A stretch of DNA of 39,138 nucleotides from a virus, in the UHGV virus genome UHGV-0198113; one strand, given 5' to 3'. This document shows positions 3,001-26,825 of this stretch, piece after piece. The position numbers and the translations under genes were made by a program. The notes under the pieces are model-generated. The model searched no databases. It was not told where the DNA came from and saw nothing but the letters and a program-made list of their open reading frames with translations. Each line of letters starts with the position of its first letter. Positions within the stretch are counted from its first letter, which is position 1.

Positions 3001-4472
3001 AAATCGCCAAACACGTGGGTGTGGTTAGACAATGCTTTGTTCTTTAAAACATTTGTCAGTGCTTTTGTTACTGGTTTGTTAGCCGGACTGGTATTGTCCA
3101 TTTTATCGATGCCGAAATCCGTTTTCGTTAACGTCAATACCATGTTCTCACCGGTCTTAACAAATCCTTTACCGTTAATGGTGTAATCATCATCGACGTA
3201 CAAGTCTAACCGGTCTTTTAATTCAGTAACGGCTTTTTGGGATATTGCTGTACCCAACGCAGCTGATGTTGCGATATTCGTAATAGAGAACAATCCGTAA
3301 ACCGACTCAGACGCCGTAGGGATATTTGCATTTAACGTCAATGGGTTGGATTGTTTCGATGTACCGTACGCTTTCACTGTGTCTGAAGACGAGAAGTACG
3401 CATTAGCTTCCAGCAACGTCACCGATGTTAAGTACATGTTCACCATGTCTGGTGTAACCAGATACACGGAGTTATACACTGGCGCTAAAACATCTTGCTC
3501 GGAGCCAGAGTGTACCCAAAGGGTGTTCAACCCAGCGCTGAACTCAACGGCTAAGCCTGATTCATTGTTGTCCTGGTCAGCTTTAATCACTAATGGTTGT
3601 GGTGACGTAATCAACCACTTATCATTTCGGATACTGATTACATGACCGCCTGCGGTTTTGAACGCCAGTTCTTTACCGTTTGAAGCACGCCAACGACCAT
3701 AAACCGTGCCGAGTGTACGGCCCATCAACTGGTCTACGTCCGACTGCTCAATTCCCGCAGAACCCATCAACGTTGCGAGTTCATCTAACGTTCTGTTGAA
3801 AGCTTTTGTCGCATCTACGGCACGCCCCAACACAGGCAGTGCACCAATGTCTTCAGTCGTGTAGTTGTGAACATTAGGGTTCAAATGGTGCTGATAAAGC
3901 TCTTCGTCAAAAACCTTCTTACCGTTTTCGTAAATCAGATTCGTAACTTCGCTAAAAGCAGCATCCAGTTCAGTGGAACGTTTGATAATCTTTTTACGAA
4001 TATCATCTAATGCTTTTACTACTTCGTCCCTGAGTAGGGCTTCTTCTAAGTTAGCAGGCGGGTCAATAGGCTGTATGACAGGAGCATACGCCATTAATTC
4101 GGACCAATCCACGTTACGCGGATCTTTTAAATCGGTACGAACTAGATACTTGCCAATTTCCGATTGTGGGATACGGTACTGGCGCGCTACACCCAGAATT
4201 TCGTATTCCACCTCAGTGGCAGTCAGTAACATGAACCCGCCGTAAATTTGGTCTTGTTCTGCCTCAGCGAGCTCTTTAAAGTAATAACCTAAATAGTAGT
4301 CCAGACCTTCTATTAAGGTACGACGGCCACCGGCGGCGGACTCGTCAGCAACAGTGAGCTTTAATCCGATACGATAAAAGGGGCCTTCCGGCGGGATGAC
4401 CACGTTAAATCGGTTAGGGTACGTTGACGTATTTAACGTACCGTTAAACAGCGCCGCGTCTTCTCTCGGCAT
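1..4472 (-). CDS. large tail-fibre/tailspike-like structural protein, partial (N-terminal ~1490 codons; C-terminus lies beyond window start)
   Basis: ATG at 4472-4470 preceded by AGGAG (MPREDAALFNG...). Frame spot-checked stop-free at the window start; the only minus-strand track ORFs in this span (1424-1654, 2600-2830) are in another frame. Absent from the ORF track because it has no stop in the window. N-terminus shares the PF(F/Y)...L.V...G.DY motif with the next two genes. Confidence 0.6.
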   Translation of the reverse strand, partial: MPREDAALFNGTLNTSTYPNRFNVVIPPEGPFYRIGLKLTVADESAAGGRRTLIEGLDYYLGYYFKELAEAEQDQIYGGFMLLTATEVEYEILGVARQYRIPQSEIGKYLVRTDLKDPRNVDWSELMAYAPVIQPIDPPANLEEALLRDEVVKALDDIRKKIIKRSTELDAAFSEVTNLIYENGKKVFDEELYQHHLNPNVHNYTTEDIGALPVLGRAVDATKAFNRTLDELATLMGSAGIEQSDVDQLMGRTLGTVYGRWRASNGKELAFKTAGGHVISIRNDKWLITSPQPLVIKADQDNNESGLAVEFSAGLNTLWVHSGSEQDVLAPVYNSVYLVTPDMVNMYLTSVTLLEANAYFSSSDTVKAYGTSKQSNPLTLNANIPTASESVYGLFSITNIATSAALGTAISQKAVTELKDRLDLYVDDDYTINGKGFVKTGENMVLTLTKTDFGIDKMDNTSPANKPVTKALTNVLKNKALSNHTHVFGDLDNVPIGSATVDGLLQLWDAIDTTNDKAVTSRQGWLFAKEIKKVTDKLNTILPAWTVGGAKFGNKNFLPIPALGNYSGFTKNQSYQKGVVGYQQGKVYSLRNASNGVPGTEAIYYGYADINSSNAFENPQQTSVKYHPVGLSKYPGVTLKAILIGGQEAIICLGSDNNRYLVLFNGSMDHAKHTVVCRVTMPVYRNGNPSGTVEQTWNPWPEADDVVLVDDYVYLLRSTVNNSAYAVAAWRLRKADLYTSTTLEFERVTLTGEMGQYGDNLCLRIGQKTEESQSGQFFTYFTPEARAKWTNGHNFVHGPECNHACAVRDSVIRVNHMPTVWFAAADGSQINFRQWATSFTIDTLTGKVTLEGAERFPIKADATTLSFADGSTVETSRKWGGGQANNRCFATFAKPNGTGMMLSCWQVNDADQMPNVSIKGTQGKELFDYLRYDNPNNTSGEGTFTWDKGRGSIYTIGLSHPVGIGGSNKVWLSNPRNRYTIEVEVDPNTPYNVPGYSGYGPNNNRREVDPTLYEQLSCMAACMTPEERHGQLNGWYLTKAETFPYRNIYGNFALSSERLTLEEADRQKMIRMIVDGAPSGEANGYANERISAAHQTGNALFALWMLGINTVCEFDLLQVSCMKTLDNGRRILDIYYFMVSPSKENGYLRFNSATFKLVDWFLDKDYGLSYQSLNEEAGNKTRRVGQPIFASADGVNFGIWLPYTLTIRNIGDLNALGYAAKYTYDPGSGWTRVPGKSQLRQMAPAHNPESGCYMGAGSWDKMALIYSKADRVFCSGNAYTAAEFVNDTTFSTGGQAVIISGVETAEGWILYLTEEVKLDFGSSSYTLPTWSVDLSNQFPSNHANQTFYVHGEVVGSTAQYQIGLEQLPDNATRLFVGTVTTDSKRIVDINIDKVKRLGRVRELEEHAAVVDQHDVAAAFDRKTGPLQTLVNQPLKAPAASTVKGSGYVDAQKWNSLSALAYKPGIPIQETYAGYKSVSRVAYENVADQFW

Positions 4473-4567: not shown

Positions 4568-7500
4568 CTAAGTGCGATCCCCTAACTGTTTACCGTTAAG
4601 TTCACGTTTCAGTACAGCTAAAATCCATTTCCACGCTTTGCTCGTGATATGGTACGGATTACGCTTTGTTATCATCACTTGTTCATCGCCGGAACGAACT
4701 TCAAAACTTTGCACGTTCAGTTGATCTTGACGAGTATTGGTTTCATCAAAGATTTCTAAATTGCAGCTGAAGTTCAACTCATACCCCTCTGGGTTGTCGC
4801 CCGGCAACTCAAGGACGATATAAAGGTCTTGGCCTGCCCGTAGATCCACGGGAGTTAAGCTTATTGCTTTACCCACATCAGAAGATGTCGACAAAGCAAA
4901 TTCGACGATGTCAGTTGCAGATAAGAAAGCATCTTTCTGTGCATCACCGATAATCACTTTCCCTGGCCAGTTGCTTTTAATCGTTCCCGACACACGCGCG
5001 ATGCGATAATGTGCTTTACTAACGCCCTGTGCGAATCGCAAGATCAAATTTCCACGATGTTTATCTGATGCAGGCGACGTGGTACTCCACGCGTTATTCC
5101 ACGTAGAGTTCTGAGAAACCAAAGCACCGCGAGCTAACTTACGATCGTAGAACTGCGCAGGTAGTTGACCTTCATGCGACAAAGAAGCAACACCTTGTCC
5201 CAGAGGTAAACCTATTGCTTCGGTAAAACGGAACTCAGATTTAATCTCGTACGATGCGGGGTCTATTGCGGTCTGGGCATAATCGGCATCACGAGCATCC
5301 GAAAGCTGACCGATAGAACTATCTACGTACGATTCAAACAAGCCACGCAAGTAATGATACTTATCAATGTCAATATTAGATGTAACCGGGTCTATTAAAC
5401 CATGGCTAATCGTCAAACGACACTTCTCGCTGAGTTCACTAAACGCCAGCCCAACGCCATCGCCAGCAAAATAATCTACCAAATCAAACGGAAGTTGGAA
5501 CTCTACTTGGCGTTGTTTAACCGCTGTTGTGTTAAACTGCGAGAAAGAAAGTGCTAATCGTAAGACACGAGTTTGAACATTATAACGGTAACGTATCATT
5601 CCCCTTGGGGCGTGAACAGGAGAAATCTTATCCTTGCTTACACCCCAACCTAAAAGGTCAAGAATTGCTGGATTAGTTTCATCGCCATTAAATAACACGT
5701 CTTTGGTAGTTGCAGAAACAGCGGTCTCATTTGCTGTTTCCATCAACATCACCCCATCGTTTGTTTCAAACGTTTTGTACCACGTCTCATTAGTACGCAC
5801 CGTACCAACACCCACTTTGCAGGTCTTATCCGTAAGATTAAAACGAACGTATCGACGTCCTACAGAACTACCTTGTGAACTAGCACAGAGTATAAGATCT
5901 GGAGCTGCTGTGAGTGCTTTTGTCCCGCCAACATCATCAACATCAAAAACAAACGACCCTTCGAATGTGGGGGCACTATTTTCTTTAGGGTTGAATGGTG
6001 TAAACCAACAATACGGCGTTGCACCTTCGGTCGAGAAAATTAGCTGTAAAGCAGTTTTAACATTTAGCCCATGCGAATAAGTAAGCAAACCGCGACTCAA
6101 GCTTACAGCAGTCCCGCCACTTCCCGCCGTTAGCATCTTACGATAAACCAACGCACGTGGTTCGGGAATAGCGCGGTTCAATAACGGTAATCTGGGGTTA
6201 TCTGTCAGCGACCAGTCGACCACTTTTAACCCGTGGGCGTTTCGCGTGGTCACATGGTTGCCAATTTCTGCACTTGTACCAAAGTCGAAAGTGGTGTCGA
6301 AAGTTACCGTCTTATTCGCGTAATTTTCGCCTGCGTAAACATCTACGTATCCGATAAAACCGCGCTCAGGATCAACCTGGTTTGATTCGATCGGCTCAGC
6401 ACGAGAATACAGAGAACCTGTGAGCATGTTAACGTAAAGATAATGACGAATCCCAACATGTGTTGTGACGAAATCGGCTAACAACTCTACGTGTGTTTCG
6501 GGACCACTGAAATATACAGGGTAATCACCGTCATATATCTCAAACTGCACCGCAGCTGATTTTGCCGTGTCGCTACATTCCGCTTTTATTGCAACAACAT
6601 AGTTCTCGACGTTTGGTGAAGTTTCGTAAACAGTTAATAATGGCGATTCACCGGAGGCAACTTGCACACCGTTAATGTACACGGTTACGGGGCCACCACC
6701 GGCAGCATAAACCCATAGCTTAGACTGGTACGCTTTGACCCGAGCTTTAGCAAGAACAGTAATTACAGACTGATCACCCATTTGTGTTGCTGTCTTTCCA
6801 ACAGGCACAGAGTGATAGCCCATTAACGGTGGTTCATCAATACCGTCCCAAGTAATTCCTGTTCCTTTGCTAACTTTTGCTTCCGGCCAGGTAGTTTCAA
6901 GCTGGTTATTTGGCGAAAACCAGTTGAACATTGGCGTTGTCTGAAGATCAATTGCACCGGTCAGGGTAGCTTCGTCTTTGTTACCATCAAACAAATAAAA
7001 GACTTTCAGATCCTGTACGGTTAAAGCAGTACCTTGACTATTAAACCGCCACTGCGCACCTTGTACCGCAGCAAAATCTGTTACCGTACCTTCTTTCGCA
7101 TTTGCAATCGCTGCGGCAACAACTTCAAGCCTTGCAGAAAGTTCTTTGAGAATATTAGGCACTACAGCCCGTCCCTCGACTAAGCCATTTTGGTTAGTCG
7201 CATAACGACCTATACCGTAAATGGATTGAGAAGCCTTATAAATGCCTAATTCTGACCACTCGTGATGGTGGTTCTTTTCCGCAAGTCCTTCAACTGCCGT
7301 ACTTAGAGCCGAGGACAGCGGTTTATCAACATCGGCGGTATTGTCAGCATGTTCCAATCCTAACTCTGCTTTGGTAATCTGGCGAGAACCGTCGTTCATC
7401 GCCTTACCGTTTAGCAGCGTCGTTTTCGGCACATACCCGGACAAGTCCGTTGAGTACGGTGTCAGTGACCCCGGTGTTGCTGCAACGCCCGTTGTTTCCG

Positions 7501-8758
7501 TTCCTTTACCGGTTTTCAGTTTAGCGACGCCTTTTTCAGTCAGAGTCGCTTTTTGAGGGTCGATAACCCCTACGATAGGGTCAGCGCGTGAACCTTTACC
7601 CGTAAAGCTAATTCCGTTGCGACCCTCGATATACACTTTAGTGTCATCAGGGTCATTACCACCTGTCCCTTCGTCAGGGTCTTGTTGGTATTCCATTAGT
7701 GCAGTCGTTGTAAGCAACGGGTTGCCGTTTAAGGTGAGTTTATTCATCCCTAAGGCATCGCCTGTTGATTCAATACGCAACGTGTTCTTACCTGCACGCC
7801 ACTGTATGTAACGACCCGCACCTGTTCCTTCCAAGTGCCCGACCGCCAACACAACTGAACCGTTTGACTTCAACGTAAAACCATCGTTCGCAAAAATGAT
7901 TTCAGATTCACCATTTTTAGAACTGAATTGTGCACGGTTTCCTGACACCGTACAGTTGAAATTCCCATAGACCTCATCAGAAATCCAATGAGAAATATAG
8001 GTGTCAACTACCGATTGTGGTAAACGGAATGCTTTTAGTTCTTCCGTTAACGCTTTCAGACGTAAACCGTAAGCCATAAAGGTATCCGGCGTTTTGAGAT
8101 TCACCGGATGAGCTTCGATTTGTGCTACGGTTGTTTCATGAGGATTCTTTGCCGCGATATGTGCTGGGTAATTAAATGCTTGAATTTCTTTACCCAGAGC
8201 AACAACGAGTGCTTTAACCTCGGCCAGTTTATCTTTAATCAGTTGGTTTGCATCATCGGTTTTTAATTCGATATCATGAACCGCAGACGCAAGATATTTT
8301 TTATTCAGCAAATCTGCCCAAGACGTTGCAGCAGGTGTTGCTGGATAAAGCGACGGACGACCTTCTAATAACAACCAATCCGCACTAGTCGGGTTATTGA
8401 GATGTTTTACAAGCTCATCCAGAATTTCTACAAACGGATCGTAAAACGTTCCACCGAGCATTTGTCCTTCAAAAGTAACTAAACCTTTGATGGATGGGTT
8501 GATAAGGTGTACCCCACAATACACGTTGGCTGCTACCGAGTCATCCAGTTCCGTCAGCTGATATTGCAGTTCGTAATCTACCCCACGGCTCAGTGGGGTA
8601 GTTGAACCCGGCTGCTTAACGACCAGATTTTCAAAGAACGGGCGATGATCCAAAATCACCACCCGATCGTTGTTGTTTTCTGACCCGATGATACGCTCCT
8701 CTAAGAAGTGATTCTCGGCTTTCGTCCCCCGAGGATCGTAAGGATACGCTTTCATCAA
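4568..8758 (-). CDS. giant structural protein (1396 aa), tail-fibre/tailspike-like
   Basis: Track ORF; AAGGAGA RBS 8 nt upstream inside the end of the preceding gene; N-terminal 'HRPFFENLVVKQPG...GVDYELQY' motif shared with neighbours; Gly/Thr/Asn-rich composition typical of fibres. Confidence 0.8.
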   Translation of the reverse strand: MMKAYPYDPRGTKAENHFLEERIIGSENNNDRVVILDHRPFFENLVVKQPGSTTPLSRGVDYELQYQLTELDDSVAANVYCGVHLINPSIKGLVTFEGQMLGGTFYDPFVEILDELVKHLNNPTSADWLLLEGRPSLYPATPAATSWADLLNKKYLASAVHDIELKTDDANQLIKDKLAEVKALVVALGKEIQAFNYPAHIAAKNPHETTVAQIEAHPVNLKTPDTFMAYGLRLKALTEELKAFRLPQSVVDTYISHWISDEVYGNFNCTVSGNRAQFSSKNGESEIIFANDGFTLKSNGSVVLAVGHLEGTGAGRYIQWRAGKNTLRIESTGDALGMNKLTLNGNPLLTTTALMEYQQDPDEGTGGNDPDDTKVYIEGRNGISFTGKGSRADPIVGVIDPQKATLTEKGVAKLKTGKGTETTGVAATPGSLTPYSTDLSGYVPKTTLLNGKAMNDGSRQITKAELGLEHADNTADVDKPLSSALSTAVEGLAEKNHHHEWSELGIYKASQSIYGIGRYATNQNGLVEGRAVVPNILKELSARLEVVAAAIANAKEGTVTDFAAVQGAQWRFNSQGTALTVQDLKVFYLFDGNKDEATLTGAIDLQTTPMFNWFSPNNQLETTWPEAKVSKGTGITWDGIDEPPLMGYHSVPVGKTATQMGDQSVITVLAKARVKAYQSKLWVYAAGGGPVTVYINGVQVASGESPLLTVYETSPNVENYVVAIKAECSDTAKSAAVQFEIYDGDYPVYFSGPETHVELLADFVTTHVGIRHYLYVNMLTGSLYSRAEPIESNQVDPERGFIGYVDVYAGENYANKTVTFDTTFDFGTSAEIGNHVTTRNAHGLKVVDWSLTDNPRLPLLNRAIPEPRALVYRKMLTAGSGGTAVSLSRGLLTYSHGLNVKTALQLIFSTEGATPYCWFTPFNPKENSAPTFEGSFVFDVDDVGGTKALTAAPDLILCASSQGSSVGRRYVRFNLTDKTCKVGVGTVRTNETWYKTFETNDGVMLMETANETAVSATTKDVLFNGDETNPAILDLLGWGVSKDKISPVHAPRGMIRYRYNVQTRVLRLALSFSQFNTTAVKQRQVEFQLPFDLVDYFAGDGVGLAFSELSEKCRLTISHGLIDPVTSNIDIDKYHYLRGLFESYVDSSIGQLSDARDADYAQTAIDPASYEIKSEFRFTEAIGLPLGQGVASLSHEGQLPAQFYDRKLARGALVSQNSTWNNAWSTTSPASDKHRGNLILRFAQGVSKAHYRIARVSGTIKSNWPGKVIIGDAQKDAFLSATDIVEFALSTSSDVGKAISLTPVDLRAGQDLYIVLELPGDNPEGYELNFSCNLEIFDETNTRQDQLNVQSFEVRSGDEQVMITKRNPYHITSKAWKWILAVLKRELNGKQLGDRT

Positions 8759-8768
8759 AAAATTCTCC

Positions 8769-11700
8769 TTAATCGCGAATAATCACCGCGTTGAGTTTAT
8801 TGTTTTCACCCAAGAACGACATGACACGCTCCTTGTTCAGATAAGGAGGGATCGGTAACGCGTTATAATCGGCTAAATTATCATCAAACTCTTTTGCTAC
8901 CAGCGCGTTTAGCGTCTCAGGATCTGAGCTTGGGCCAGCTGTCTCAATGAGGCGTGCGCGGTTTAATGCAGAATAGTTAGCGATATAATCCAATAGCGTT
9001 CCGTACGATTTATTTGCTGTTATGCTATCAGCAGTGGTACGGAGGTTGGCGCGTACCTCGTCGTCATAAAGTCCCCCTAAACCGTAATAGATAGGGGTAT
9101 AAGGATCGTTAACAATGGGTGAAATATCTAACTCACCTAGACGATCAGTTAACGAAATTTTCTGAGTTGTTCCGCCCGCTGCGGTGCAGCTTACGTATTT
9201 ATCTACATCTGACAAATACACAACGATGGTATAAACCGTTCCTGCTAGTGTTAACGTCGCATTAAACGTCACATCGTTGTTCGCGCCGCGTCTGTGGGTA
9301 AATGTGATATCGGGTTGTAATGTACTCCAAGGGGCAGGTGTAACACGCTTCGTTGGTGTAAAACCAAGAACAACCGATTTCCCATTAGCGAAGTTTAACC
9401 CGAAACCTGCGTAACAATATTCGCCCTTACTGTCAGTTAAGCGGTAGCCCCTTGTCACTAAAAGAGACAAGCGAACAAACTCATTGGCATTATTCCGCCA
9501 ACAACCTAAAATCGTTTCAAGCACTGTGCCCGTTTTTGCGTTACTCTCCGTTTCCCAAGTTACACGAACACCTGCGTTCGAGAACAGCGGGAAAAGATTG
9601 TGAATAAATCCATGAACATTATCACTAACTCCCTTTGGATCAAATATCCACTTCGAAGCTAAGGAATCGTATTTTACGCCGTCGAGTGCTTTATACGTAT
9701 TCCCCATCGCAAATCGCCAATCAGCCTCACCACGTGTTACTGCTTGTAAGCCTGAAGCCCAGCAGGGCGCACCCACTGTTAAATTGCGCAAACCTAGAGC
9801 TGCACGTGGCGCACTTCTCTGAATATGCGCATTGTCGTTAGCAATATGTTCTGACAATTCCCGGAAATCACCTAAACGGGTCACGTTACGCAACTCGGTT
9901 AAGTACACTTCTGAGATATCGTTGACGCCAATCATCCCCACACGGGTCATGGTATCCGTTTCGGCTTGACTGTAACTATCGTGAATAACATAAGTCGCCC
10001 GGTTATCGACAATATCAACAAACACCCCAGCAACAATTTCCGTATTCAGTTTTGGAAAGCGCTCAGCAGTGTTTACTGTCATTAACGGCACTTGATACGT
10101 TTCCCCACCAATGAAATACGTTGTGGCGGGTAACGTAACCAGTATCTTGTCTTTTACCGTAACTTCGATTAAGTCGTTCCCAGTTTCACCGTAACGGATG
10201 ATGTCAATTCGGGCACCCGAATCTACGTTACCTACTGTTGCTTCCAGCTTCTCAATTCGAGCTGTCTGATCCATCACCACACTAGCGTCTAAAGCCAGCG
10301 TTGCATCATCGACGGCTAATCCGAATTTAATTAACCCGCGTTTATCCGTTGTTGCGTTTTCCACTCCAAACGCTGTTGACGGGTGGCGGTGAACCTTCGG
10401 TGAATATTTATCCAACTCTGTTTGTTGTGCAACAGAAATAGGTAAATCGACGTCAGGTGTGTTTGCAACGTTACCTAGGTTAAAGGTGATTTTGTCGATG
10501 GTAATAGAGCTGGTTAACGGCATGTCGTTAATGTACGATTTTACCGCGACCAATTTACCCGTAAACTCAGCATCGAGTTTTGTAATCAACGCAGGCGTCG
10601 CTGCCAGATTTTCCGCAGTACCGAACTCATCGGTTAACTGCCATCCGGCTAAGGACGTCGTATCCGTTGCGGTAGGGAGGACAAACGTTGCCACAAACGG
10701 TGACGCTTTTATTCCGTTACCTGTAATGGTTACCGTTGCTGTCGAGTTTGCGTAGAATAATCCTGTTCCACCCGCGGTATTACCTGGTAGGTAAGGCCCT
10801 ACTGTGGTGGGGTCTAAAAGTTTCTTACCACGCCACTGCAAGCCACGATCGTCAGCGTACAATACCAGCTGATTAGTCCCTGCCTGGAAAGTTACGGGGT
10901 TATTCCCTGCATTAACTTCGGTTGAACCTTGGCCAATAAACTTAATGGATTTCGGGTCAACGGCAAACTGAGCACCTAAACGGGTCTCGTCAACAACATC
11001 CGGCGCTTTCTTAATGGTAACCGTGTTACCTTTGTTTTGCGAGATAATGCTGACACTATCAGCAACGTTGTTAATCAACGTTTTAAAGTGATGTTGGTTC
11101 TCTAACGCTTCTAGCGCAGCATCCATGTTAACGAAGTTGACACGAGCGCTGTACGTCTTACCATTCACGGTAACAACGATATCAAATACGTTCCCCGTAC
11201 GTTTTAATTGGAAACGTAACGTAAAATCATCGTCAGGTATTGCAGGATCGGCGATTTGAGAAACATATTGGACTTCCGGCTGCGGATTAGCATAACCGTT
11301 CAGTTGTAAACCGATACTGACTCGACCTGACAGAACTTCACCGGTAAGTTGAATGAATTTGCCAGAGTTACTACCAGGATTTTCATAGAAGCGTAAACCA
11401 ACCATACCGACTGCTTCATTACCTGACGCTGTTTTACGTCCGGTGACAATGAAGTCAATATCTTGCAGGTTGGCAGGTACTCCATTAAAATAAGTACCAA
11501 ATCCATTCTTCGTTCCCGTATAACGAAGTGCGCCATGATACGTGTAACCATTGCTAACATAGCTTTCGCTAAAATAAGGGTTCACGTACTTAGACATCGA
11601 CACCGGATCAACTTCCGTCGTAAAGGACGTAAAGCCTGGCAGTGTTCTGATAGTTCCGTCAACCGTTTTGTTAGCTGCGGTGCGTAGCAGTTTATTCTGC

Positions 11701-13091
11701 GCTGTCAGTGTTGCCTGCGTCGGGTATTTACTGTTAACGTAATCCGTTAACTGTTGTTTCGTTTTCCCGTAAGCCAAAGCAGCATCTGACGCGATACCGT
11801 TTAACTCTAACGCACGAATCGGTCCCCACGTATCGACGTGTGGGTTATCTTTACGGGTAACGTGCTCGTGAGCTGGTGCGTTGCGGTAAAGCTGTTCCAC
11901 CAACTGATGGTATTTGACAATCAGCTGATAAACGTCATTGCTTACGTCGGCGTCTGGCGCACCAGGTAACGCAAGGAATTGTGCATAATCGTTTTCAGCC
12001 GCCCACCAGTTTAGATTAACGTTGGTTTTATATTTCAACCATTTCGCAACATCTGTTTTGCTATAACCTGCTGAGAATTCGGATGGTGGGTTATCAACGT
12101 TGAACGTGTAGTCCATCGTCTGTTTGTTAGTCGTCACCTCGATAACATACACACCGTTACCAGGCTGACGAACAACACTAAACGTTAACTCACCTTTCAA
12201 TTCGCTGTCGGTCAGTCCGTTGATTAGCGTATAGTCGTAATCGGTTGAGCCGCTTCCTAACGCTACGGTCAGGCGCAAAGAGATTTTACGCTGCTTTAAT
12301 TGAAGACGAAGGATACTTGCACCGCCATTCGCGTAGCACAACATCCAATCGATTTGTTCATTTGGGTTAATGCTTCCCATGTTCGGGAAAATACCAGGAA
12401 TACGGTATTTCATCGACAGGGAGTAGTCATTTAACGTCGTGGTTTTGTACGTAACGGCAAAACGGCGTTTTGTAGTGTTGTACGTATAACCGCCTTTGTT
12501 ATCGTACGTTGCATACTGTTCTGACGTGATAACCGTGCCGTTAGCACGATGCTCAATATCTAACGTGTTACGTGCAATCGGGTCTAACCGATTTACAACG
12601 TTACCTAAGGAGTCGCCTAAGCCTGCGATGGCTTGCATTAACTCCAGTTCACCTTTCCAGTTTTCCCAATCGAACTGAATGTCAACGGGTGGAAAGTAAA
12701 CGTCCCCGATAACGGTGTCCCATTGACACGTAGACGGGTATTTATCTTTATTTAACTCACGCTCTGCGCTAATCTGCTGCTGTGTGGCTTCACCACAACC
12801 AACGGCATGATAATCCACAGTAAAATTCGACTTGTATTTGTCGTTAACAATCCAAATCATCCCGTGAATGAGATAGGCTGTGCGCAACATACCTGTCTCG
12901 TACGGGTGTGTAATTACGTAATCGTCGCCTAAGGTCAGTGTTTTGCCGCCGCTCTTGACCACCAGGGACGTGGTGAAAAAAGGGGCGTGGGCAGGTACCA
13001 ACATTCGGTACTTCGTACCAATGACGGCGACCGCTTCACCGGTTATTTTATTCCCCGGTTCTTTGAAGTGTGGGTCTAGGACGACAGCCAT
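8769..13091 (-). CDS. giant structural protein (1440 aa), tail-fibre/tailspike-like
   Basis: Track ORF; AGGAG RBS; N-terminal 'HAPFFTTSLVVKSGG...GDDYVITH' motif; stops 10 nt before the next gene starts (operon). Confidence 0.8.
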   Translation of the reverse strand: MAVVLDPHFKEPGNKITGEAVAVIGTKYRMLVPAHAPFFTTSLVVKSGGKTLTLGDDYVITHPYETGMLRTAYLIHGMIWIVNDKYKSNFTVDYHAVGCGEATQQQISAERELNKDKYPSTCQWDTVIGDVYFPPVDIQFDWENWKGELELMQAIAGLGDSLGNVVNRLDPIARNTLDIEHRANGTVITSEQYATYDNKGGYTYNTTKRRFAVTYKTTTLNDYSLSMKYRIPGIFPNMGSINPNEQIDWMLCYANGGASILRLQLKQRKISLRLTVALGSGSTDYDYTLINGLTDSELKGELTFSVVRQPGNGVYVIEVTTNKQTMDYTFNVDNPPSEFSAGYSKTDVAKWLKYKTNVNLNWWAAENDYAQFLALPGAPDADVSNDVYQLIVKYHQLVEQLYRNAPAHEHVTRKDNPHVDTWGPIRALELNGIASDAALAYGKTKQQLTDYVNSKYPTQATLTAQNKLLRTAANKTVDGTIRTLPGFTSFTTEVDPVSMSKYVNPYFSESYVSNGYTYHGALRYTGTKNGFGTYFNGVPANLQDIDFIVTGRKTASGNEAVGMVGLRFYENPGSNSGKFIQLTGEVLSGRVSIGLQLNGYANPQPEVQYVSQIADPAIPDDDFTLRFQLKRTGNVFDIVVTVNGKTYSARVNFVNMDAALEALENQHHFKTLINNVADSVSIISQNKGNTVTIKKAPDVVDETRLGAQFAVDPKSIKFIGQGSTEVNAGNNPVTFQAGTNQLVLYADDRGLQWRGKKLLDPTTVGPYLPGNTAGGTGLFYANSTATVTITGNGIKASPFVATFVLPTATDTTSLAGWQLTDEFGTAENLAATPALITKLDAEFTGKLVAVKSYINDMPLTSSITIDKITFNLGNVANTPDVDLPISVAQQTELDKYSPKVHRHPSTAFGVENATTDKRGLIKFGLAVDDATLALDASVVMDQTARIEKLEATVGNVDSGARIDIIRYGETGNDLIEVTVKDKILVTLPATTYFIGGETYQVPLMTVNTAERFPKLNTEIVAGVFVDIVDNRATYVIHDSYSQAETDTMTRVGMIGVNDISEVYLTELRNVTRLGDFRELSEHIANDNAHIQRSAPRAALGLRNLTVGAPCWASGLQAVTRGEADWRFAMGNTYKALDGVKYDSLASKWIFDPKGVSDNVHGFIHNLFPLFSNAGVRVTWETESNAKTGTVLETILGCWRNNANEFVRLSLLVTRGYRLTDSKGEYCYAGFGLNFANGKSVVLGFTPTKRVTPAPWSTLQPDITFTHRRGANNDVTFNATLTLAGTVYTIVVYLSDVDKYVSCTAAGGTTQKISLTDRLGELDISPIVNDPYTPIYYGLGGLYDDEVRANLRTTADSITANKSYGTLLDYIANYSALNRARLIETAGPSSDPETLNALVAKEFDDNLADYNALPIPPYLNKERVMSFLGENNKLNAVIIRD

Positions 13092-13158
13092 TATCTACTC
13101 CTATAATCCGTGGGCGTCGAGTTCATACTATGACTTGAATCTATAGAGGAAAAGAGCT

Positions 13159-14421
13159 GTGACTACTGCTTATCAAGTGCGGCCCGACAGCGCTTTTGGC
13201 TTCTCTCGAGAGTCCCGTACCTGGGGAGCCATCGATGTCACGCAACCTTTAGCTACACTGTGTTCGGATTACCACACCTTTGAGGTCGGCCTGAGTGCGC
13301 TTGGTAAAGACTATACGTTAGTCAGCCAGTATCACCTTGCTGAATTACAAAACCGAACCGATACTTTACAAGACTGGTTGAATGAAAAAGCCGGTGTGGT
13401 TATTCCTACCTTAAAAGCAGGATTACCGAAACTGGAATTCAGCTGGGCGCATTACCAATCGATTAACGCAGACGTACCCGTTGAGTCTTACCTGTGCCCT
13501 GCGGGTTATCATTACAGTCAGGATTTCAGTCTGGATGATGCGACAGATGTGGTGATAGTCTGTGAAGACAAATGGAAAGACAAATACCGTAACGGGGTGC
13601 TATACAACATCAACGGGCAATGGGTGCCGCATCAATCTGATTCTGTTGGTGTACGATTACCTGGTGCTGGGAATATCGTTAGACGTGCAGGTACACCAGA
13701 TATCGGTTGCATGGTTTTTGATGCGCTCGGTGCGGTGAAAACATACCCGATTGCTAATCTTACCTTAAACAAACTCGACACCACGCGCGATTACTATTCA
13801 ACGTTAATGATTTCGTTGCCCGAATCCATAACCGGTAAAACCGTAGGGTTCGTTATTGGTGGGATGTTACGTTGGCTGCCTGCGAACGGTTATTTCTCCG
13901 ATCGTGCGATTATGATTTCTTTACCGAATTTCGATCTTGCGCGCACGGTGTTAGAAACACGGCGTTACTACGATTGGGATGCTATCGGTGTAGGGGATTT
14001 ATCTTCACCTGCTAACGTTCAACGAATTCGCAACCCAGAAACATTAAAAGCGCTCTTACTTCACGAATCTTCGTTTATTTTTACGGTGGATAATCCGTAT
14101 TTAGAAGAAGAGATTGTGGGCGTATCGCATAACGCGATTTGGGGACGTTGTTATCTCAAAGACCCTAACGATCCTGATTCTGAAAAACCGTTAGGCTATT
14201 TAAATAACCGATTCGGAAAGACGGTAGGTTATTGGCCTACGTGGGAAGAAGGTGAGTGGGTATTTAACACCACCGAGTTCGACAGTCAAAACTACGTATT
14301 TCGTGAAGCTCGCTGGTATAACCAGAAGAAGATTAACGATGCGCAAGCGATAGTCGGGCCCTTCGGCCCCTGGGAAAAAGTGTATTTAGAAATGCATCGT
14401 TTTCGTGCACGAAAAAAATAA
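13159..14421 (+). CDS. hypothetical protein (420 aa), GTG start
   Basis: Track ORF; GAGGA RBS upstream of GTG; followed by a strong terminator. No motif recognised. Confidence 0.6.
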   Translation: MTTAYQVRPDSAFGFSRESRTWGAIDVTQPLATLCSDYHTFEVGLSALGKDYTLVSQYHLAELQNRTDTLQDWLNEKAGVVIPTLKAGLPKLEFSWAHYQSINADVPVESYLCPAGYHYSQDFSLDDATDVVIVCEDKWKDKYRNGVLYNINGQWVPHQSDSVGVRLPGAGNIVRRAGTPDIGCMVFDALGAVKTYPIANLTLNKLDTTRDYYSTLMISLPESITGKTVGFVIGGMLRWLPANGYFSDRAIMISLPNFDLARTVLETRRYYDWDAIGVGDLSSPANVQRIRNPETLKALLLHESSFIFTVDNPYLEEEIVGVSHNAIWGRCYLKDPNDPDSEKPLGYLNNRFGKTVGYWPTWEEGEWVFNTTEFDSQNYVFREARWYNQKKINDAQAIVGPFGPWEKVYLEMHRFRARKK

Positions 14422-14427
14422 AGTAAC

Positions 14428-14470
14428 CTCCTACCCTCTTAGAGGGTAGGAGTAGCACGTTTTTTTTTTC
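14428..14470. terminator. bidirectional rho-independent terminator
   Basis: 11-bp perfect stem CTCCTACCCTC/GAGGGTAGGAG with TTA loop (14428-14452), T11 run on plus (14460-14470) and T-rich tract on minus; sits between convergent genes. Confidence 0.75.
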
Positions 14471-14472
14471 GC

Positions 14473-14682
14473 TTAGTCTTTTTTGTAGACGATCGCGTTG
14501 CCGTGCAGTTTGTTGTTACCAGAGATACCGATAACTTTAAATGCGTCACCACCGATTTTCTCGGCTTCAGCAGCCAGTTTACCGGTTACGTGGTCAACGG
14601 TATCACCAAAGGCACTAACGTTACCAATTTTCTTAAACTCTTCTGGGATATGCTCAGCAGAAGAGAACTCTTTAATAGACAT
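14473..14682 (-). CDS. DUF1471 (BhsA/YdgH/McbA-like) small protein, no signal peptide
   Basis: Track ORF; GGAGAG RBS; 'KIGNVSA...AEKIGGDAFKVIGISGNNKLHGNAIVYKK' matches the BhsA-family core as I recall it; in-frame stop 11 codons upstream rules out an N-terminal extension. Confidence 0.65.
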   Translation of the reverse strand: MSIKEFSSAEHIPEEFKKIGNVSAFGDTVDHVTGKLAAEAEKIGGDAFKVIGISGNNKLHGNAIVYKKD

Positions 14683-14753
14683 AACAGCTCTCCATTTCAG
14701 AAAAGGAATACGGGTCTAAGACCGTAGTGTGTTACAACCAAAGCATAAGATAA

Positions 14754-14773
14754 CTCCTCCCCGAAGGGAGGAG
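14754..14773 (-). terminator. C(UUCG)G tetraloop hairpin terminator for the 321-aa minus-strand gene
   Basis: 8-bp stem CTCCTCCC/GGGAGGAG; loop reads UUCG on the minus strand; T-rich tract follows in the minus direction. Confidence 0.55.
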
Positions 14774-14891
14774 AAGAGTGCGCGAAAAGAAGTGGCCTGC
14801 TTAACTAAACGATGGGTTTAAGAAAAGTGTTGATAAGAAGCTTACCAACGTCAGGTCACAATATATAAACGCAACGTAAGAAAAAGGGGAA

Positions 14892-15857
14892 TTACCGTGG
14901 ACCCGAAGTAGGACCGTGTACACCGTCGTGGATGTGTACGCTGAAAGTAATGCCCGCAATAACCGCATCTTTAACCGTAAAGATACCCACACCTTCCCCA
15001 GTACCGCCGTACTTGAAGTTTTTAGCCACTTCAAGATTACCGGTGAATTGTGCTTCATTCCCTTCTTGTTTAAAGTTCGGCGTTTTAAAGGTGGTCGAAC
15101 TCCCCGCTTCCGTTAACCAGGTTTGTGTTTTAAAGGTAACGGATTTCGATGCTTCTGTATTGCGAACTTCGCATTTCTCATTAATCGTTTTTGTTTCCAG
15201 GTTAATAGAACGCTTTGAATAAATGAACGCATCTTCTTTGTTGATGTTCACTTTTGATAGCATCGCATTCTCAAACCCGAGATCATCTTCGACCGAGTTA
15301 ATGTAATACTTGTTCCCTTTATGGTCAACGCATTGCCACGATCCGTTTGCGTTGTCAAACTGGAATAACCACGCCGCTTTCTCGCCATTCACCATACATG
15401 TTCTTAGCGTGATATGTTTGTCAATCGTCGAGACATTCAACACATACGCATTGGACAGGTCATCCGCCATTTGGTTTTCGGGGTCAGCCGACCACGCATA
15501 AACCGCATCTTCTAATCGCTTAACGTTAGCGAAATTCAAATCAATCCAAAAATAAATATCGGTTTTCCCCAAACGTAACAAGATAACGTAGTCTTCTCGT
15601 TTAACGTCAGGGGAATTAATTCGGTTGGAGTTAAACTTCCACCACTTTGCTGTTATCGTGTTACCCGTCTTAATGGTTAGGTTATCTGTTGCACCAGACG
15701 TTTCATGCGTCTTTTCAGTTGCTGAAGAAACAGATTGCACCACAGTAGGGTTAGCAAAGTTGGTTTCAATTGGTATCACTTTTACCCGATCTGTACCACG
15801 GGGTTTGTCTTCCGCGACGATACCAATTGAGAAAAAATCAACACTGGATTTCTCCAT
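14892..15857 (-). CDS. hypothetical protein (321 aa)
   Basis: Track ORF; AAGGAA RBS 7 nt upstream on minus strand. No motif recognised. Confidence 0.7.
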   Translation of the reverse strand: MEKSSVDFFSIGIVAEDKPRGTDRVKVIPIETNFANPTVVQSVSSATEKTHETSGATDNLTIKTGNTITAKWWKFNSNRINSPDVKREDYVILLRLGKTDIYFWIDLNFANVKRLEDAVYAWSADPENQMADDLSNAYVLNVSTIDKHITLRTCMVNGEKAAWLFQFDNANGSWQCVDHKGNKYYINSVEDDLGFENAMLSKVNINKEDAFIYSKRSINLETKTINEKCEVRNTEASKSVTFKTQTWLTEAGSSTTFKTPNFKQEGNEAQFTGNLEVAKNFKYGGTGEGVGIFTVKDAVIAGITFSVHIHDGVHGPTSGPR

Positions 15858-15908: not shown

Positions 15909-16243
15909 ATAGGGACTGAAGTGCGAGTTCAGTCCCTACGGACACGTTTCTTTCGAAACGGAGTTACCACGTTATTAGGAAACAGACCAATGTCTACTGA
16001 GAAGAAAGGCGGATTGGACGAAGTCATCGAACAGTTCAAACGCTACAACCCAGCTATTCCTCGGTAATCATAGTATTACTTAAAATTTACAGATTGTCCC
16101 TTTATTCTGCTACTCGGGATACCGGTAGGGGGTAGGGGGCATTATGTATACGGATATAAATAGCGGAGGTATACGTAGTATACCGACATACTCTTCCCAG
16201 AGGAACGTAGTGACTTCCTTATTCCTTTTTAGGAGAATAATCC

Positions 16244-16996
16244 ATGCTGACAGCAGAAGTTTTTGTTAACCAATACTTAGATGAACTCTTTGCTAAGACC
16301 TATTTAGAGATCGCCTCTCCTATCGTTGAAGATTTAGTAGGTTCAAAATACCCTGCTAAATTAGTCGAAATCAAAACGGTTAAGCCTGAAAACGTTCCTA
16401 CTGACGAACCAGAGGATAAATATCGGATTACCGCTTATGCTAATAGCGTATTCAGTATTCTTAACAGCGAAACTGGTGTGATGCTTATTTACAGTATCAT
16501 TACCGAAAGCGATTTTAATTCAGTACGCTACGCTATCGAAAATCTGGCTAACATTGGACCGCTTAGCCATGACCCGACCATTATAACAGAACAGTGGGCA
16601 TTAATGTCTGTATTTGCCCACTTCCCTTTATTCCGCCACGGAATTGCATTAATTCATCGTGAATTTGAAGTACCTTACAATGCGGAACTAACGTTACTGG
16701 GTCCTGGTTTTAATCTCTACCCGTTAAGGGACGATAACGATAAGTTATACGGCGTCCATATCTACTTTAAATGCTTCGAGGAGCTGTACGTTCTTGAGTT
16801 AATTGCTTCGGATATAGTAAAAGAAATCCCAGAAGTAGAAACGATTTCCAGAAATACTCACGTGATCGAAATCAATCCCAACGATCCGATGTTGAAATAC
16901 CGTGATGAAGTCGATATACTTAGCATCGCTACTGTTAGAGGCTGGGGCGCTGCTGAAATTACCAATAACCGCTTGTTATTGTTAAAACACGCGTAA
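16244..16996 (+). CDS. hypothetical protein (250 aa); paralog-family member 1
   Basis: Track ORF; AGGAGA RBS; C-terminus '...VRGWGAAEITNNRLLLLKHA' is a diverged copy of the GW...G(K)QLLF module. Confidence 0.7.
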   Translation: MLTAEVFVNQYLDELFAKTYLEIASPIVEDLVGSKYPAKLVEIKTVKPENVPTDEPEDKYRITAYANSVFSILNSETGVMLIYSIITESDFNSVRYAIENLANIGPLSHDPTIITEQWALMSVFAHFPLFRHGIALIHREFEVPYNAELTLLGPGFNLYPLRDDNDKLYGVHIYFKCFEELYVLELIASDIVKEIPEVETISRNTHVIEINPNDPMLKYRDEVDILSIATVRGWGAAEITNNRLLLLKHA

Positions 16997-20157: not shown

Positions 20158-20188
20158 GTGGGAGCATTGCTCCCACTTTCTTTTTTGT
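20158..20188 (+). terminator. rho-independent terminator closing the paralog operon
   Basis: 8-bp stem GTGGGAGC/GCTCCCAC with 3-nt loop, followed by TTTCTTTTTT. Confidence 0.7.
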
Positions 20189-20207
20189 TCAGTACGATTA
20201 GAAATAA

Positions 20208-20232
20208 TTTCAGATATATATTACTTAGGTGA
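20208..20232 (+). promoter_or_regulatory. conserved 25-nt motif TTTCAGATATATATTACTTAGGTGA (copy 2)
   Basis: Identical to copy 1 except for one A/T; lies between a terminator and the secreted-protein cassette, about 48 nt upstream of the ATG at 20281. Confidence 0.4.
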
Positions 20233-20280
20233 GAGTTACGATTAACTCTTTTAACCTGTTAACCTTTAAGGAGTATTTCA

Positions 20281-20736
20281 ATGAAAACTTTTATCGCATT
20301 CTTAGTAACCCTTTTAACTTTCGGTCTCAATAACGCTTACGCCGCAATCGGAAGCTGGGAAGGACTTCAAAGTCCGGGAAATGCTGTTTACGAAATCGAA
20401 GACGAAAATGGGAACAGCTTGTCTATCAACTGCGATACCGCAACGGCTAATCGTAAGTTTTACGGTCGCATGGTTTGGTATTACGGTGAACCGGTCGGTT
20501 CAACTAATGCCGAAGACAACGAAATGAGTATTGTCGTAAACGGCAAAAACTATATCATTCCCACTATTGACGGCAGCGACAAAGCAGAAAAAGCTTGGGT
20601 TGCCTTCGCTAATGCTATCGCTAATGCAAAAAGCTTCGGTGTGGCTATCAACGGTAACGAAGCCGCTAACTTTATTGTAGATGGTGAGCGTCTGCCCGAA
20701 ACTTTCTTTAAGAACTGTGGACATAGCCGTCCTTGA
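20281..20736 (+). CDS. small exported protein with signal peptide (151 aa)
   Basis: Track ORF; AAGGAG RBS; N-terminal hydrophobic signal 'MKTFIAFLVTLLTFGLNNAYAA'; two Cys; paralog of the next gene. Confidence 0.8.
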   Translation: MKTFIAFLVTLLTFGLNNAYAAIGSWEGLQSPGNAVYEIEDENGNSLSINCDTATANRKFYGRMVWYYGEPVGSTNAEDNEMSIVVNGKNYIIPTIDGSDKAEKAWVAFANAIANAKSFGVAINGNEAANFIVDGERLPETFFKNCGHSRP

Positions 20737-24290: not shown

Positions 24291-24320
24291 ACACCACACT
24301 CCGTGATTATGGAGGTGGGT

Positions 24321-26825
24321 ATGCTAAAAGTTGAACGTATTGTACTCAAAGGTTTTACGGGGATGGGATTGCACGAAATTGAAACGTTCGATTTCACTAT
24401 CCAGTCACCGACAACGATTATCCTGGGTGGGAACGGTTGTGGGAAGACCAGTTTACTGTCCGTATTTTTGCCCTTAGCTCCGGCTAAAACAGAATTCAGG
24501 GATGGGGGTTCTTACACGAATTATTGTTTAGTCGGCGATCAACGTTACCGTTTCAAAGTTGCCCGTAAAGGCAACTCGTTGGTTTGCGATATTGAGAATC
24601 TCACTACGGGAACGAAGATTGTCGAGCAAGGTAACGCAAAGGTTTACAATTCACGCGTTGAAGAAATCACTGGTATTACGAAAGAAATTAAAGAATTGTT
24701 AAACGGTGAGGTGTTGTTAACGGACGCGGGAACGGAATTACGTCGTAAATGGTTTTACCGTTTAAGTACCTCTGACCTTACTTACGCGCTAGGGTTCTAT
24801 CAGAGATTGCGGAAAAACCTCACCGTCTTAAACGGTGGCATTGAAATTACCAGTCGTAAGATCGCAGAGTTACGAACACGTGTTATTGAAAATGAAGAAG
24901 AACGTCAACAGTTAGCGGTAAGATTAAAAGGCTTGGAATCGGATTTACGCGAACTGAACCGACAAATCGAACAGCTACCGGGTTTAAATCGTGGCGTTAC
25001 TATCGAATCAATCCAGGCGTTATTAAACGGCTTAGGTCCAACTATCGACGCAATATTACAACATCGTGGTGGTTTGCCTACCGACGAACAGATACTGAAC
25101 GCACGACACAATGAAGCCACAGCACGCGAAGCTGTCGTTTCAGCAGAAACGGAAGTATCAATGTTGAATAAAGATCTGTCGTTATTGATGGACGAGTCAA
25201 CGCGACAGGATTACCTGATGCGCAATCACGAGGGTCTCAAGAACACTCTCGCACGTTTACGTGAAGTGCTTACCAAATGGGACACCGAGCATCTCTTTCC
25301 TGGACTGTTTAGTGAGAGTGCGAATTTAGACCAGCTACGTGCTGCAACCGATGCACGCGTTTGGGGCCAACGACTGGGAACAACACTGGACGCCATTCAT
25401 TCAACCGAAAAGCTCAACGTTTTGGAAGAACGTCTACTGGTGATGGATCAGAAGACCGCAGGATTGCGAGATAGACTCCAGCGCGTAGAGAATGTTTTAC
25501 AAAACTTGAACCACGAACGAAATCACTATCTGGAAACAGCAGAAGTAGATTGCCCGCAATGTCGGTTTAAATTTCGACCTGGGGTTACGCGTTCTTTGTC
25601 TGAACTTGAAACCTCGATTAGAGGCCAACAGCAACAACGTACGGAGCTTCAAACACAGTTAGACAGTATATTACGCGATCGTGTCGAACTGGAATCTGAT
25701 GTAACGTATATGCGTCAGGTTCGTGAAATCGTGTTGACGTACTCAAAGGACCCGGTTTTAAGCATGTTCTTTAAGTGTCTACAAGAACGTAATGTCTTTA
25801 CAGAATCACGCGAACAGTTCGGAAGTCTCTGCGCGGCTTTTGACAGTGAGCTGTATTCTGCTATTGAATATCATGAAACCCGTCAACGGTTAGTGAAGGC
25901 AGAAAAAGAATGGCAAGATGCGGTAGCTGCTGTGGGTAACGTCGATGGTGCTTTACAACAGAAAATTGCTTTCCAACAATCGCGTTTAGGTAAAGCCACA
26001 GAAACGCTCTCAGTGCGTCGTAGAGAGCACGAGTTAGCTAATACGACACTTACCTATCTAGAGAGCGTTAAACGTGCTATAGACGATTTTAGCGCGTTAT
26101 TCGAACGGTTAGAGAATGACGTTAAGGTTACTTTGACAAACACAGTTGTCGAAGAACTCTTACGGGCACGAGAAGGGAAACTGGATGCGTTTACGACAGC
26201 ACGTGAGCGTTATCGTCAAATGGAAAGTGAACTGAATCAGCTCAATACGTTGGAACGCGAACTTGCGGATTTACAAGCCCAGCAGTTTAATAACAAATTG
26301 ATGATTCAGGCGTTCTCGCCAGAAAAAGGTGTACTCAGAAAGTATTTTTACAATGCTATCGTCAGAATCACAGAGTTAATGACGCGCTATATCGAACAAG
26401 TCTGGACGTACCCCATGCGAGTTATGCCTTGTGATCTCACCGACGGTGATTTGGATTATACTTTTCCTGTCCAACTAAAAACACATCCTGAACCCGTTCC
26501 TGATGTGCGTAAAGGGTCTAAGGCACAACGTGCTATATTCAATCTGATGTTCAGACTGACTGCGTATAAAGCGTTGAAATTACATCAGTTTCCTTTGCTA
26601 TTGGATGAACCCTCAGAGGGTATGGACGAAGAACACCGTAATAACCTGGTTGGTTTTATTAAAACGTTAGCAAACTCAGGGGAGTTCTCGCAGTTACTGG
26701 TGGTCTCCCACGAAGCTGAAGTCCATTCTAAACTTAACGAAGCATCGTACTGTGTCATTGAACCGGAAGGGGTGACATTACCTGCGGTGTATAACGAGGG
26801 AGTAAAAATTGTTTATGCAAACTGA
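24321..26825 (+). CDS. Rad50/SbcC-like SMC-family ATPase with coiled coil and CxxC zinc hook (~834 aa)
   Basis: Track ORF 24303-26825 trimmed to the ATG 5 nt after GGAGG. Walker A 'GGNGCGKTSLL'; mid-protein 'CPQC' hook within predicted coiled coil; C-terminal Walker B/D-loop 'LLLDEPSEGMDEE' and 'LLVVSHE'. Confidence 0.8.
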   Translation: MLKVERIVLKGFTGMGLHEIETFDFTIQSPTTIILGGNGCGKTSLLSVFLPLAPAKTEFRDGGSYTNYCLVGDQRYRFKVARKGNSLVCDIENLTTGTKIVEQGNAKVYNSRVEEITGITKEIKELLNGEVLLTDAGTELRRKWFYRLSTSDLTYALGFYQRLRKNLTVLNGGIEITSRKIAELRTRVIENEEERQQLAVRLKGLESDLRELNRQIEQLPGLNRGVTIESIQALLNGLGPTIDAILQHRGGLPTDEQILNARHNEATAREAVVSAETEVSMLNKDLSLLMDESTRQDYLMRNHEGLKNTLARLREVLTKWDTEHLFPGLFSESANLDQLRAATDARVWGQRLGTTLDAIHSTEKLNVLEERLLVMDQKTAGLRDRLQRVENVLQNLNHERNHYLETAEVDCPQCRFKFRPGVTRSLSELETSIRGQQQQRTELQTQLDSILRDRVELESDVTYMRQVREIVLTYSKDPVLSMFFKCLQERNVFTESREQFGSLCAAFDSELYSAIEYHETRQRLVKAEKEWQDAVAAVGNVDGALQQKIAFQQSRLGKATETLSVRRREHELANTTLTYLESVKRAIDDFSALFERLENDVKVTLTNTVVEELLRAREGKLDAFTTARERYRQMESELNQLNTLERELADLQAQQFNNKLMIQAFSPEKGVLRKYFYNAIVRITELMTRYIEQVWTYPMRVMPCDLTDGDLDYTFPVQLKTHPEPVPDVRKGSKAQRAIFNLMFRLTAYKALKLHQFPLLLDEPSEGMDEEHRNNLVGFIKTLANSGEFSQLLVVSHEAEVHSKLNEASYCVIEPEGVTLPAVYNEGVKIVYAN

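Follow-up and report, generated by a model that had tools for sequence, protein, structure and literature searches.

A DUF1471 domain protein without a signal peptide encoded in the tail module of a jumbo phage related to SPN3US

Analysis of a 39,138-nucleotide stretch of the virus genome UHGV-0198113 (here termed the window) revealed a gene for a 69-amino-acid protein of the DUF1471 family that lacks a signal peptide and is located in the tail/baseplate module of a jumbo phage. The coordinates of the gene and its surroundings are given in Table 1. While the DUF1471 identity is firm, the function can be proposed only with a probability of about 0.5: we favor a small accessory protein of the baseplate/tail-fibre apparatus. 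The protein is not the first of its family, which has been catalogued both as phrog_8068 and as SPN3US gp172. A literature search returned no papers on BhsA in jumbo phages or on a multiple stress resistance protein in Erwinia phage. That this jumbo-phage clade has kept a periplasmic domain specific to Enterobacterales without the export signal was not found to be discussed in the literature searched.

Table 1. Location of the DUF1471 gene, its expression signals and neighboring genes in the window.
Feature	Position	Strand	Description
DUF1471 coding sequence (69 aa)	14473..14682	-	Ortholog of SPN3US gp172; member of phrog_8068; without signal peptide
Shine-Dalgarno sequence GGAGAG	14688..14693	-	From the sequence and aligned upstream regions
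TATG motif, putative late (non-virion RNA polymerase) promoter/start	14744..14747	-	Directly after the upstream terminator
Intrinsic-terminator-like hairpin CUCCUCCC-UUCG-GGGAGGAG	14753..14779	-	8-bp GC stem, UUCG loop
Bidirectional terminator hairpin	14428..14452	both	11-bp perfect stem, 3-nt loop, T-runs on either side
Baseplate assembly protein (upstream neighbor)	14892..15857	-	phrog_3216; ortholog of SPN3US gp173 (tail)
Virion structural protein (convergent neighbor)	13159..14421	+	phrog_3337; ortholog of SPN3US gp171 (essential, tail-associated)
Giant virion proteins of 1396 and 1440 aa, paralogs of each other	4568..8758, 8769..13091	-	SPN3US gp169/gp170-like; candidate baseplate/tail-fibre proteins

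The coding sequence of 210 nt yields a protein with the N-terminal sequence MSIKEFSSAEHIPEE (ORF translation). Comparison with the Pfam profile PF07338 (YdgH/BhsA/McbA-like domain, formerly DUF1471) gave a score of 38.2 bits (E = 1.4e-9), above the gathering cutoff of 27 bits, with residues 17 to 67 aligned to positions 2 to 55 of the 55-position profile. Four orthologs or paralogs also passed this cutoff, the orthologs with 43.5 to 68.1 bits and gp189 of Erwinia phage Wellington with 29.7 bits. Furthermore, a profile of the phage family matched the YahO structures 2ma4 and 2noc in the PDB (E of about 1.6e-6 to 2e-6). An AlphaFold2 model of the protein (pLDDT 89, pTM 0.75) shows a strand, a long strand, a helix and two strands (beta-beta-alpha-beta-beta), and the top PDB matches to this model in Foldseek were DUF1471 structures with TM values of 0.7 to 0.78, i.e., the C-terminal domain of YdgH (4evu), STM1478 (2m2j), SrfN (2ma8), STM0082 (2jna) and YahO (2noc), with RcsF and dodecins ranking below them. 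At the level of a predicted structure, this indicates that the compact alpha/beta DUF1471 fold is present. DUF1471 membership had been proposed in a preceding sequence-only reading, which named an HMM search against this family as the check; both the search and the predicted fold bear the proposal out. A spurious ORF at this position is ruled out by the profile match, synteny and dN/dS.

The start of the gene is well delimited. An in-frame stop codon lies 11 codons 5' of the ATG, and the codons between them include no start codon, so that an N-terminal extension is impossible, as the sequence-only reading had also concluded. The GGAG core of the Shine-Dalgarno sequence ends 7 nt 5' of the ATG and, in the alignment of upstream regions, is kept at most orthologous loci, the Derbicusvirus group having GAGG. 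At the locus of Erwinia phage Derbicus (2941-3183), the annotated ortholog comprises 80 amino acids and has a GTG start. The conserved MQQFAK start of the CR5 and Phobos orthologs was found at 2977 in the same locus, and the Derbicus ortholog has probably been called 12 codons too long.

The best NCBIfam match of the 69-aa protein was BhsA (NF047859), with a score of 46.8 bits where the equivalog cutoff is 90 bits, and the scores for the other named paralogs (YbiJ, YahO, McbA and YhcN) were below cutoff as well. By these profile comparisons, the protein is a member of the DUF1471 family and an ortholog of no named paralog, including BhsA. The RefSeq label of SPN3US gp172 (SPN3US_0172; YP_009153466) is "DUF1471 domain-containing protein." Several GenBank records label phage orthologs "multiple stress resistance protein BhsA," which is, judged by the score below the equivalog cutoff, an over-annotation. 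These labels and the best NCBIfam match are what would favor a BhsA-like stress or biofilm "moron," i.e., a protein reaching the envelope by a non-classical route and protecting the infected host. We consider this very improbable, given the low BhsA score and since inspection of the sequence revealed no signal peptide, hydrophobic segment, cysteine or lipobox. Moreover, the cultured relatives recovered were all SPN3US-related jumbo phages and none was a lysogen-converting prophage; SPN3US is strictly lytic.

The missing export signal was evident from several comparisons. In the first 35 residues of the protein, the maximum 9-residue Kyte-Doolittle hydropathy is only 0.52 and an h-region is absent, and the net charge over residues 1 to 15 is -3. 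A profile search against 1.84 billion representative proteins yielded 91 matches at E <= 1e-3. The four best of these (68 to 78 aa) were phage-type proteins aligning from residue 1, whereas the remaining matches were mostly bacterial proteins of 80 to 90 aa, in which the domain is preceded by a basic n-region, hydrophobic core and AxA cleavage site. The maximum 9-residue hydropathy was at most 1.96 in the phage copies, in which the peak usually corresponds to the first long strand of the domain, and above 2.0 in full-length bacterial members; the N-terminal net charge was negative in the former and positive in the latter. The matches also contained a few short bacterial entries without a leader, which look like fragments or miscalled starts. 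No signal peptide was present in any of the eight phage orthologs inspected. Since full-length bacterial members have a leader and the phage copies do not, the phage protein represents one mature domain with MSIKEF replacing the leader, and it would not be periplasmic by the normal (Sec) route. The acidic N terminus and the lack of a signal peptide, which set the protein apart from bacterial members, had already been noted in the sequence-only reading.

With a baseplate gene upstream and a gp171-like gene opposite (Table 1), the gene is situated in the tail/baseplate module, in agreement with the structural region named in the sequence-only reading. That reading had further described the gene as convergent between strong terminators. 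The terminators and the convergent arrangement with the gp171-like gene were confirmed; the upstream baseplate gene, however, runs in the same direction, so that the gene is convergent with the gp171-like gene only. The bidirectional hairpin, common to the two convergent genes, has a folding energy of -20 to -22 kcal/mol with z values of -3.3 and -4.6 for the two strands. An equivalent GC-rich hairpin was found 3' of the ortholog in seven of eight other phage genomes, the exception being Wellington, where the gene of a paralog takes this place. The second hairpin (-17.8 kcal/mol, z = -3.7), located between the baseplate gene and the 69-aa gene, is intrinsic-terminator-like and would end the transcript of the baseplate gene before the 69-aa gene is reached.

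Directly behind this hairpin, a TATG motif (14747..14744 on the minus strand) occurs 62 nt 5' of the ATG. TATG, mostly as TATGC, was present about 50 to 70 nt 5' of the start codon at all nine orthologous loci compared, and the spacers around it otherwise align poorly among these loci. In phage phiKZ, late promoters of the non-virion RNA polymerase consist of TATG with the G as +1, a motif that is necessary but not sufficient (PMC4666361). Since the gene is bounded by terminators and the conserved TATG matches this late consensus, we infer a separate late transcription unit by analogy with phiKZ. A 5' untranslated region hairpin that appeared conserved in the alignment was rejected, its folding energy being no better than that of shuffled sequences (z = +0.9). 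An Rfam search of the window gave no RNA-element match, and ARAGORN detected no tRNA in it.

TATG was also observed 5' of neighboring structural genes in the window. Between the divergently oriented 1440-aa and gp171-like genes (13092-13158), there is one TATG on each strand, and another is found at about 16140-16243, 5' of the ORF 16244..16996; these may be further phiKZ-type late promoters. Another conserved sequence was seen at 20178-20284, an intergenic stretch 5' of the ORF 20281..20736, of which about 75 to 107 nt are 82 to 89% identical to many SPN3US-like phages. The counterparts in these phages are mostly unannotated, and most of the remaining query had no megablast match to them. The stretch is preceded by a terminator hairpin and includes TATATTAC, taken here as the phiKZ early-promoter core; the 8-mer TATATTAC alone is not enriched in the window. 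At 24303-26825, the window contains an ORF of 840 aa with a match to phrog_77 (E = 4e-91), the SbcC-like subunit of a palindrome-specific endonuclease, and this places the right half of the window outside the structural module.

The window phage belongs to the jumbo phages and is related to SPN3US, phiEaH2 and Asesino, with about 74% nucleotide identity over its best-conserved gene. In the phage collection, no relative exceeded 80% nucleotide identity, and cultured phages reached at most about 77% over long stretches. The exact 69-aa protein was present in 876 blocks of a metagenome collection, on contigs of 221 to 228 kb, and the window phage is thus probably an uncultured jumbo phage of wide occurrence.

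We analyzed in which other phages the gene exists. The protein matches phrog_8068, annotated in PHROG as "unknown function," over its full length (E = 4.5e-32; residues 1 to 69 against positions 1 to 70 of 70). In a tblastn search, the gene was found in 60 phage records, all from jumbo phages, at 40 to 80% identity, with SPAsTU (79.7%) and Erwinia phages (71 to 78%) as the closest among cultured phages. The recorded hosts of the cultured phages that carry it are Salmonella, Erwinia, Escherichia, Cronobacter and Proteus, all of them Enterobacterales. Only seven close relatives were returned by a word-indexed protein search, only eight loci, all on jumbo contigs, by a scan of IMG/VR, and only two significant viral structures, both of the same phage family, by BFVD; these searches yielded no evidence of a DUF1471 domain in other phage groups. 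The order of baseplate gene, DUF1471 gene and gp171-like gene is constant across Seoulvirus (SPN3US, SPAsTU and pEa_SNUABM_29), Erskinevirus (Asesino), Wellingtonvirus and Derbicusvirus (Phobos, CR5 and Derbicus), the DUF1471 gene lying between the other two in all eight phage genomes inspected. Metagenomic contigs show the same gene order, as does a supposed Salmonella enterica entry, in fact a phage contig that stems from a sequencing run on Salmonella.

Selection on the gene is strongly purifying. Its dN/dS is 0.07 to 0.10 in comparison with SPAsTU and Asesino, and 0.07 between these two. In related metagenomic genomes of 221 to 228 kb, 19 to 23 of the 210 nt differ, all of them synonymously and none nonsynonymously, and identity of the neighboring proteins is 96% for the baseplate protein and 94% for the gp171-like protein; these contigs were picked by exact protein identity, so that the 100% amino acid identity is partly given by construction and hence biased, yet synonymous changes are in clear excess nonetheless.

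The sequence-only reading had regarded the gene as a captured host domain put to a different use. This remains the most economical explanation, as DUF1471 is restricted to Enterobacterales (PMC11705850) and the cultured carriers infect Enterobacterales. The GC content of the gene (0.43, compared with 0.447 for the window) matches the phage composition, which suggests that the acquisition is old. A neighbor-joining tree built from 56 alignment columns of the domain in 20 phage and 72 bacterial sequences recovered a phage clade in only 6 of 200 bootstraps, and identities overlap, with 43 to 52% among phages and 44 to 58% between phages and bacteria. The domain is too short for the tree to resolve number, source or direction of transfers; a single acquisition by the phage lineage is therefore argued on the grounds of fixed synteny and shared loss of the leader.

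Published proteomes of SPN3US bear on the question of whether the protein is part of the virion. In 2017, gp172 was reported as the smallest of 86 proteins of CsCl-purified virions, detected by mass spectrometry with 4 unique peptides, 6 spectra and 81% coverage (PMC5694885). Its spectral count per mass (SC/M) was 0.86, next to 0.93 for the portal, 1.00 for gp170 and 0.74 for gp171 (PMC5694885). It was listed without the "Head" flag that labels proteins found in a tailless mutant, and of the wild-type virion proteins it alone was lacking in 47(am1) particles, for which the authors cautioned that the low-mass region of the gel, and with it a 7-kDa protein, had possibly been lost (PMC5694885). 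A 2023 study assigned gp167 to gp171 and gp173 to the tail; its tables, covering triplicate wild-type virions, 37-slice tailless heads and a chymotrypsin digest, contain no row for gp172 (PMC10052503). The neighboring gp171 is an essential tail-associated protein (PMC5105663). Virion association of gp172 therefore amounts to one detection that was not reproduced, and the published record is equivocal. The absence of gp172 alone from 47(am1) particles could be taken as a sign that the protein is head-internal or ejected and requires gp47 for its incorporation. This is highly doubtful for the 69-aa protein, and a head location of gp172 is unlikely, considering the lack of a head flag in 2017, its absence from the 37-slice tailless heads in 2023, the position of the gene in the tail module and the gel loss proposed by the authors as the cause.

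The same record also speaks against an accessory of the tail, since virion association goes back to a single experiment with 6 spectra and gp172 is missing from the 2023 tables as well as from 47(am1) particles. A possible, though clearly less probable, alternative is a non-structural cytoplasmic effector that acts on a host component, for example as a decoy for binders of host DUF1471 proteins or of their precursors, or by interfering with envelope-stress pathways, the 2017 detection of gp172 being carry-over. It would fit with the absence of gp172 from the later, more stringently purified virion replicates of SPN3US, with a gene that seems to be an independent transcription unit outside any structural operon, and with the second paralog of Wellington, whose long acidic disordered tail is unusual for a structural subunit. 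On the other hand, the position of the gene is fixed inside the tail module across four genera, the 2017 detection had high coverage and a mass-normalized abundance like that of neighboring tail proteins, and DUF1471 proteins have no known cytoplasmic partner, with signal-less YdgH being inactive in its native role (PMC11705850).

The nature of the neighbors, which are baseplate/tail-fibre candidates, and the single detection of gp172 in virions are also compatible with an effector or adhesion module that is carried on the baseplate or fibres and reaches the outer membrane or periplasm from outside, where the domain would bind an envelope component or disturb envelope homeostasis and thereby aid adsorption or penetration. 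The source family is periplasmic or outer-membrane-associated and restricted to the host order of these phages; however, no DUF1471 domain has a known ligand (PMC11705850), and the virion association was not reproducible, which makes this reading unlikely. If this is true, the phage would use its tail to deliver a mimic of stress proteins of its host.

Our preference for the baseplate/tail-fibre accessory is based on the constant place of the gene in the tail module, the upstream signal resembling a late promoter, the strong constraint and the one virion detection at tail-like abundance. Phage tails assemble in the cytoplasm, and an exported protein cannot be built into them; loss of the leader is thus expected if a host envelope domain was recruited to the virion or its assembly. 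In the proposed scenario, an ancestor of the SPN3US/phiEaH2/CR5-like jumbo phages would have acquired an enterobacterial periplasmic DUF1471 domain, from which the Sec signal peptide was removed, so that the protein would stay in the cytoplasm, the site of tail assembly. Its gene would form a short unit of its own inside the tail/baseplate block, composed of a terminator, the TATG late-promoter-like motif, the Shine-Dalgarno sequence, the 210-nt coding sequence and the bidirectional terminator. We infer that the protein is made late and in the cytoplasm and that it is associated with the tail in an accessory or structural role, either as a low-copy, loosely held virion subunit or as an assembly helper that partly copurifies with the particles. 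It would not act as a BhsA-type stress protein.

For jumbo-phage biology, the gene represents a small clade-specific addition beside an essential tail gene. This phage lineage has kept a DUF1471 domain under very strong purifying selection, with the export signal removed and the gene fixed in the tail module. Whether the protein is a true virion subunit is of interest since the answer would settle a point left by the SPN3US proteomes. In Enterobacterales, DUF1471 proteins are envelope proteins that are abundant and induced by stress, and the phage copy gives independent access to the question of what the fold binds.

DUF1471 is confined to Enterobacterales, where it forms about 12 paralogous families with periplasmic signal sequences; isolated domains are monomeric, and YdgH without its signal sequence fails to complement (PMC11705850). 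The bacterial proteins are tied to stress, biofilm and virulence phenotypes, and their molecular activity is not known (PMC11705850), so that homology yields no mechanism for the phage protein. With bacterial members such as BhsA/YcfR, YbiJ, YahO, McbA, YhcN, SrfN and YdgH, the phage protein has in common the Pfam match, the fold (predicted here), the size of one mature domain and, judged by the hosts of the cultured phages that carry the gene, the association with Enterobacterales. Unlike these proteins, it has no Sec signal peptide, begins with the acidic MSIKEF, is encoded in a tail module and has a short C-terminal extension beyond the terminal YK of the bacterial family. Erwinia phage Wellington differs in harboring a second signal-less DUF1471 domain: the gene for its 73-aa ortholog (3001-3222) is directly followed by the gene for gp189 (3287-3847; 186 aa), in which the DUF1471 domain is N-terminal and an acidic, low-complexity C-terminal tail of about 120 residues follows, whereas the window contains the single short form only. 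The closest parallel is SPN3US gp172, which likewise comprises 69 amino acids with a DUF1471 domain and no signal peptide and is encoded in the same gene order with the same terminator 3' of the gene, although the two proteins share only about 45% identity.
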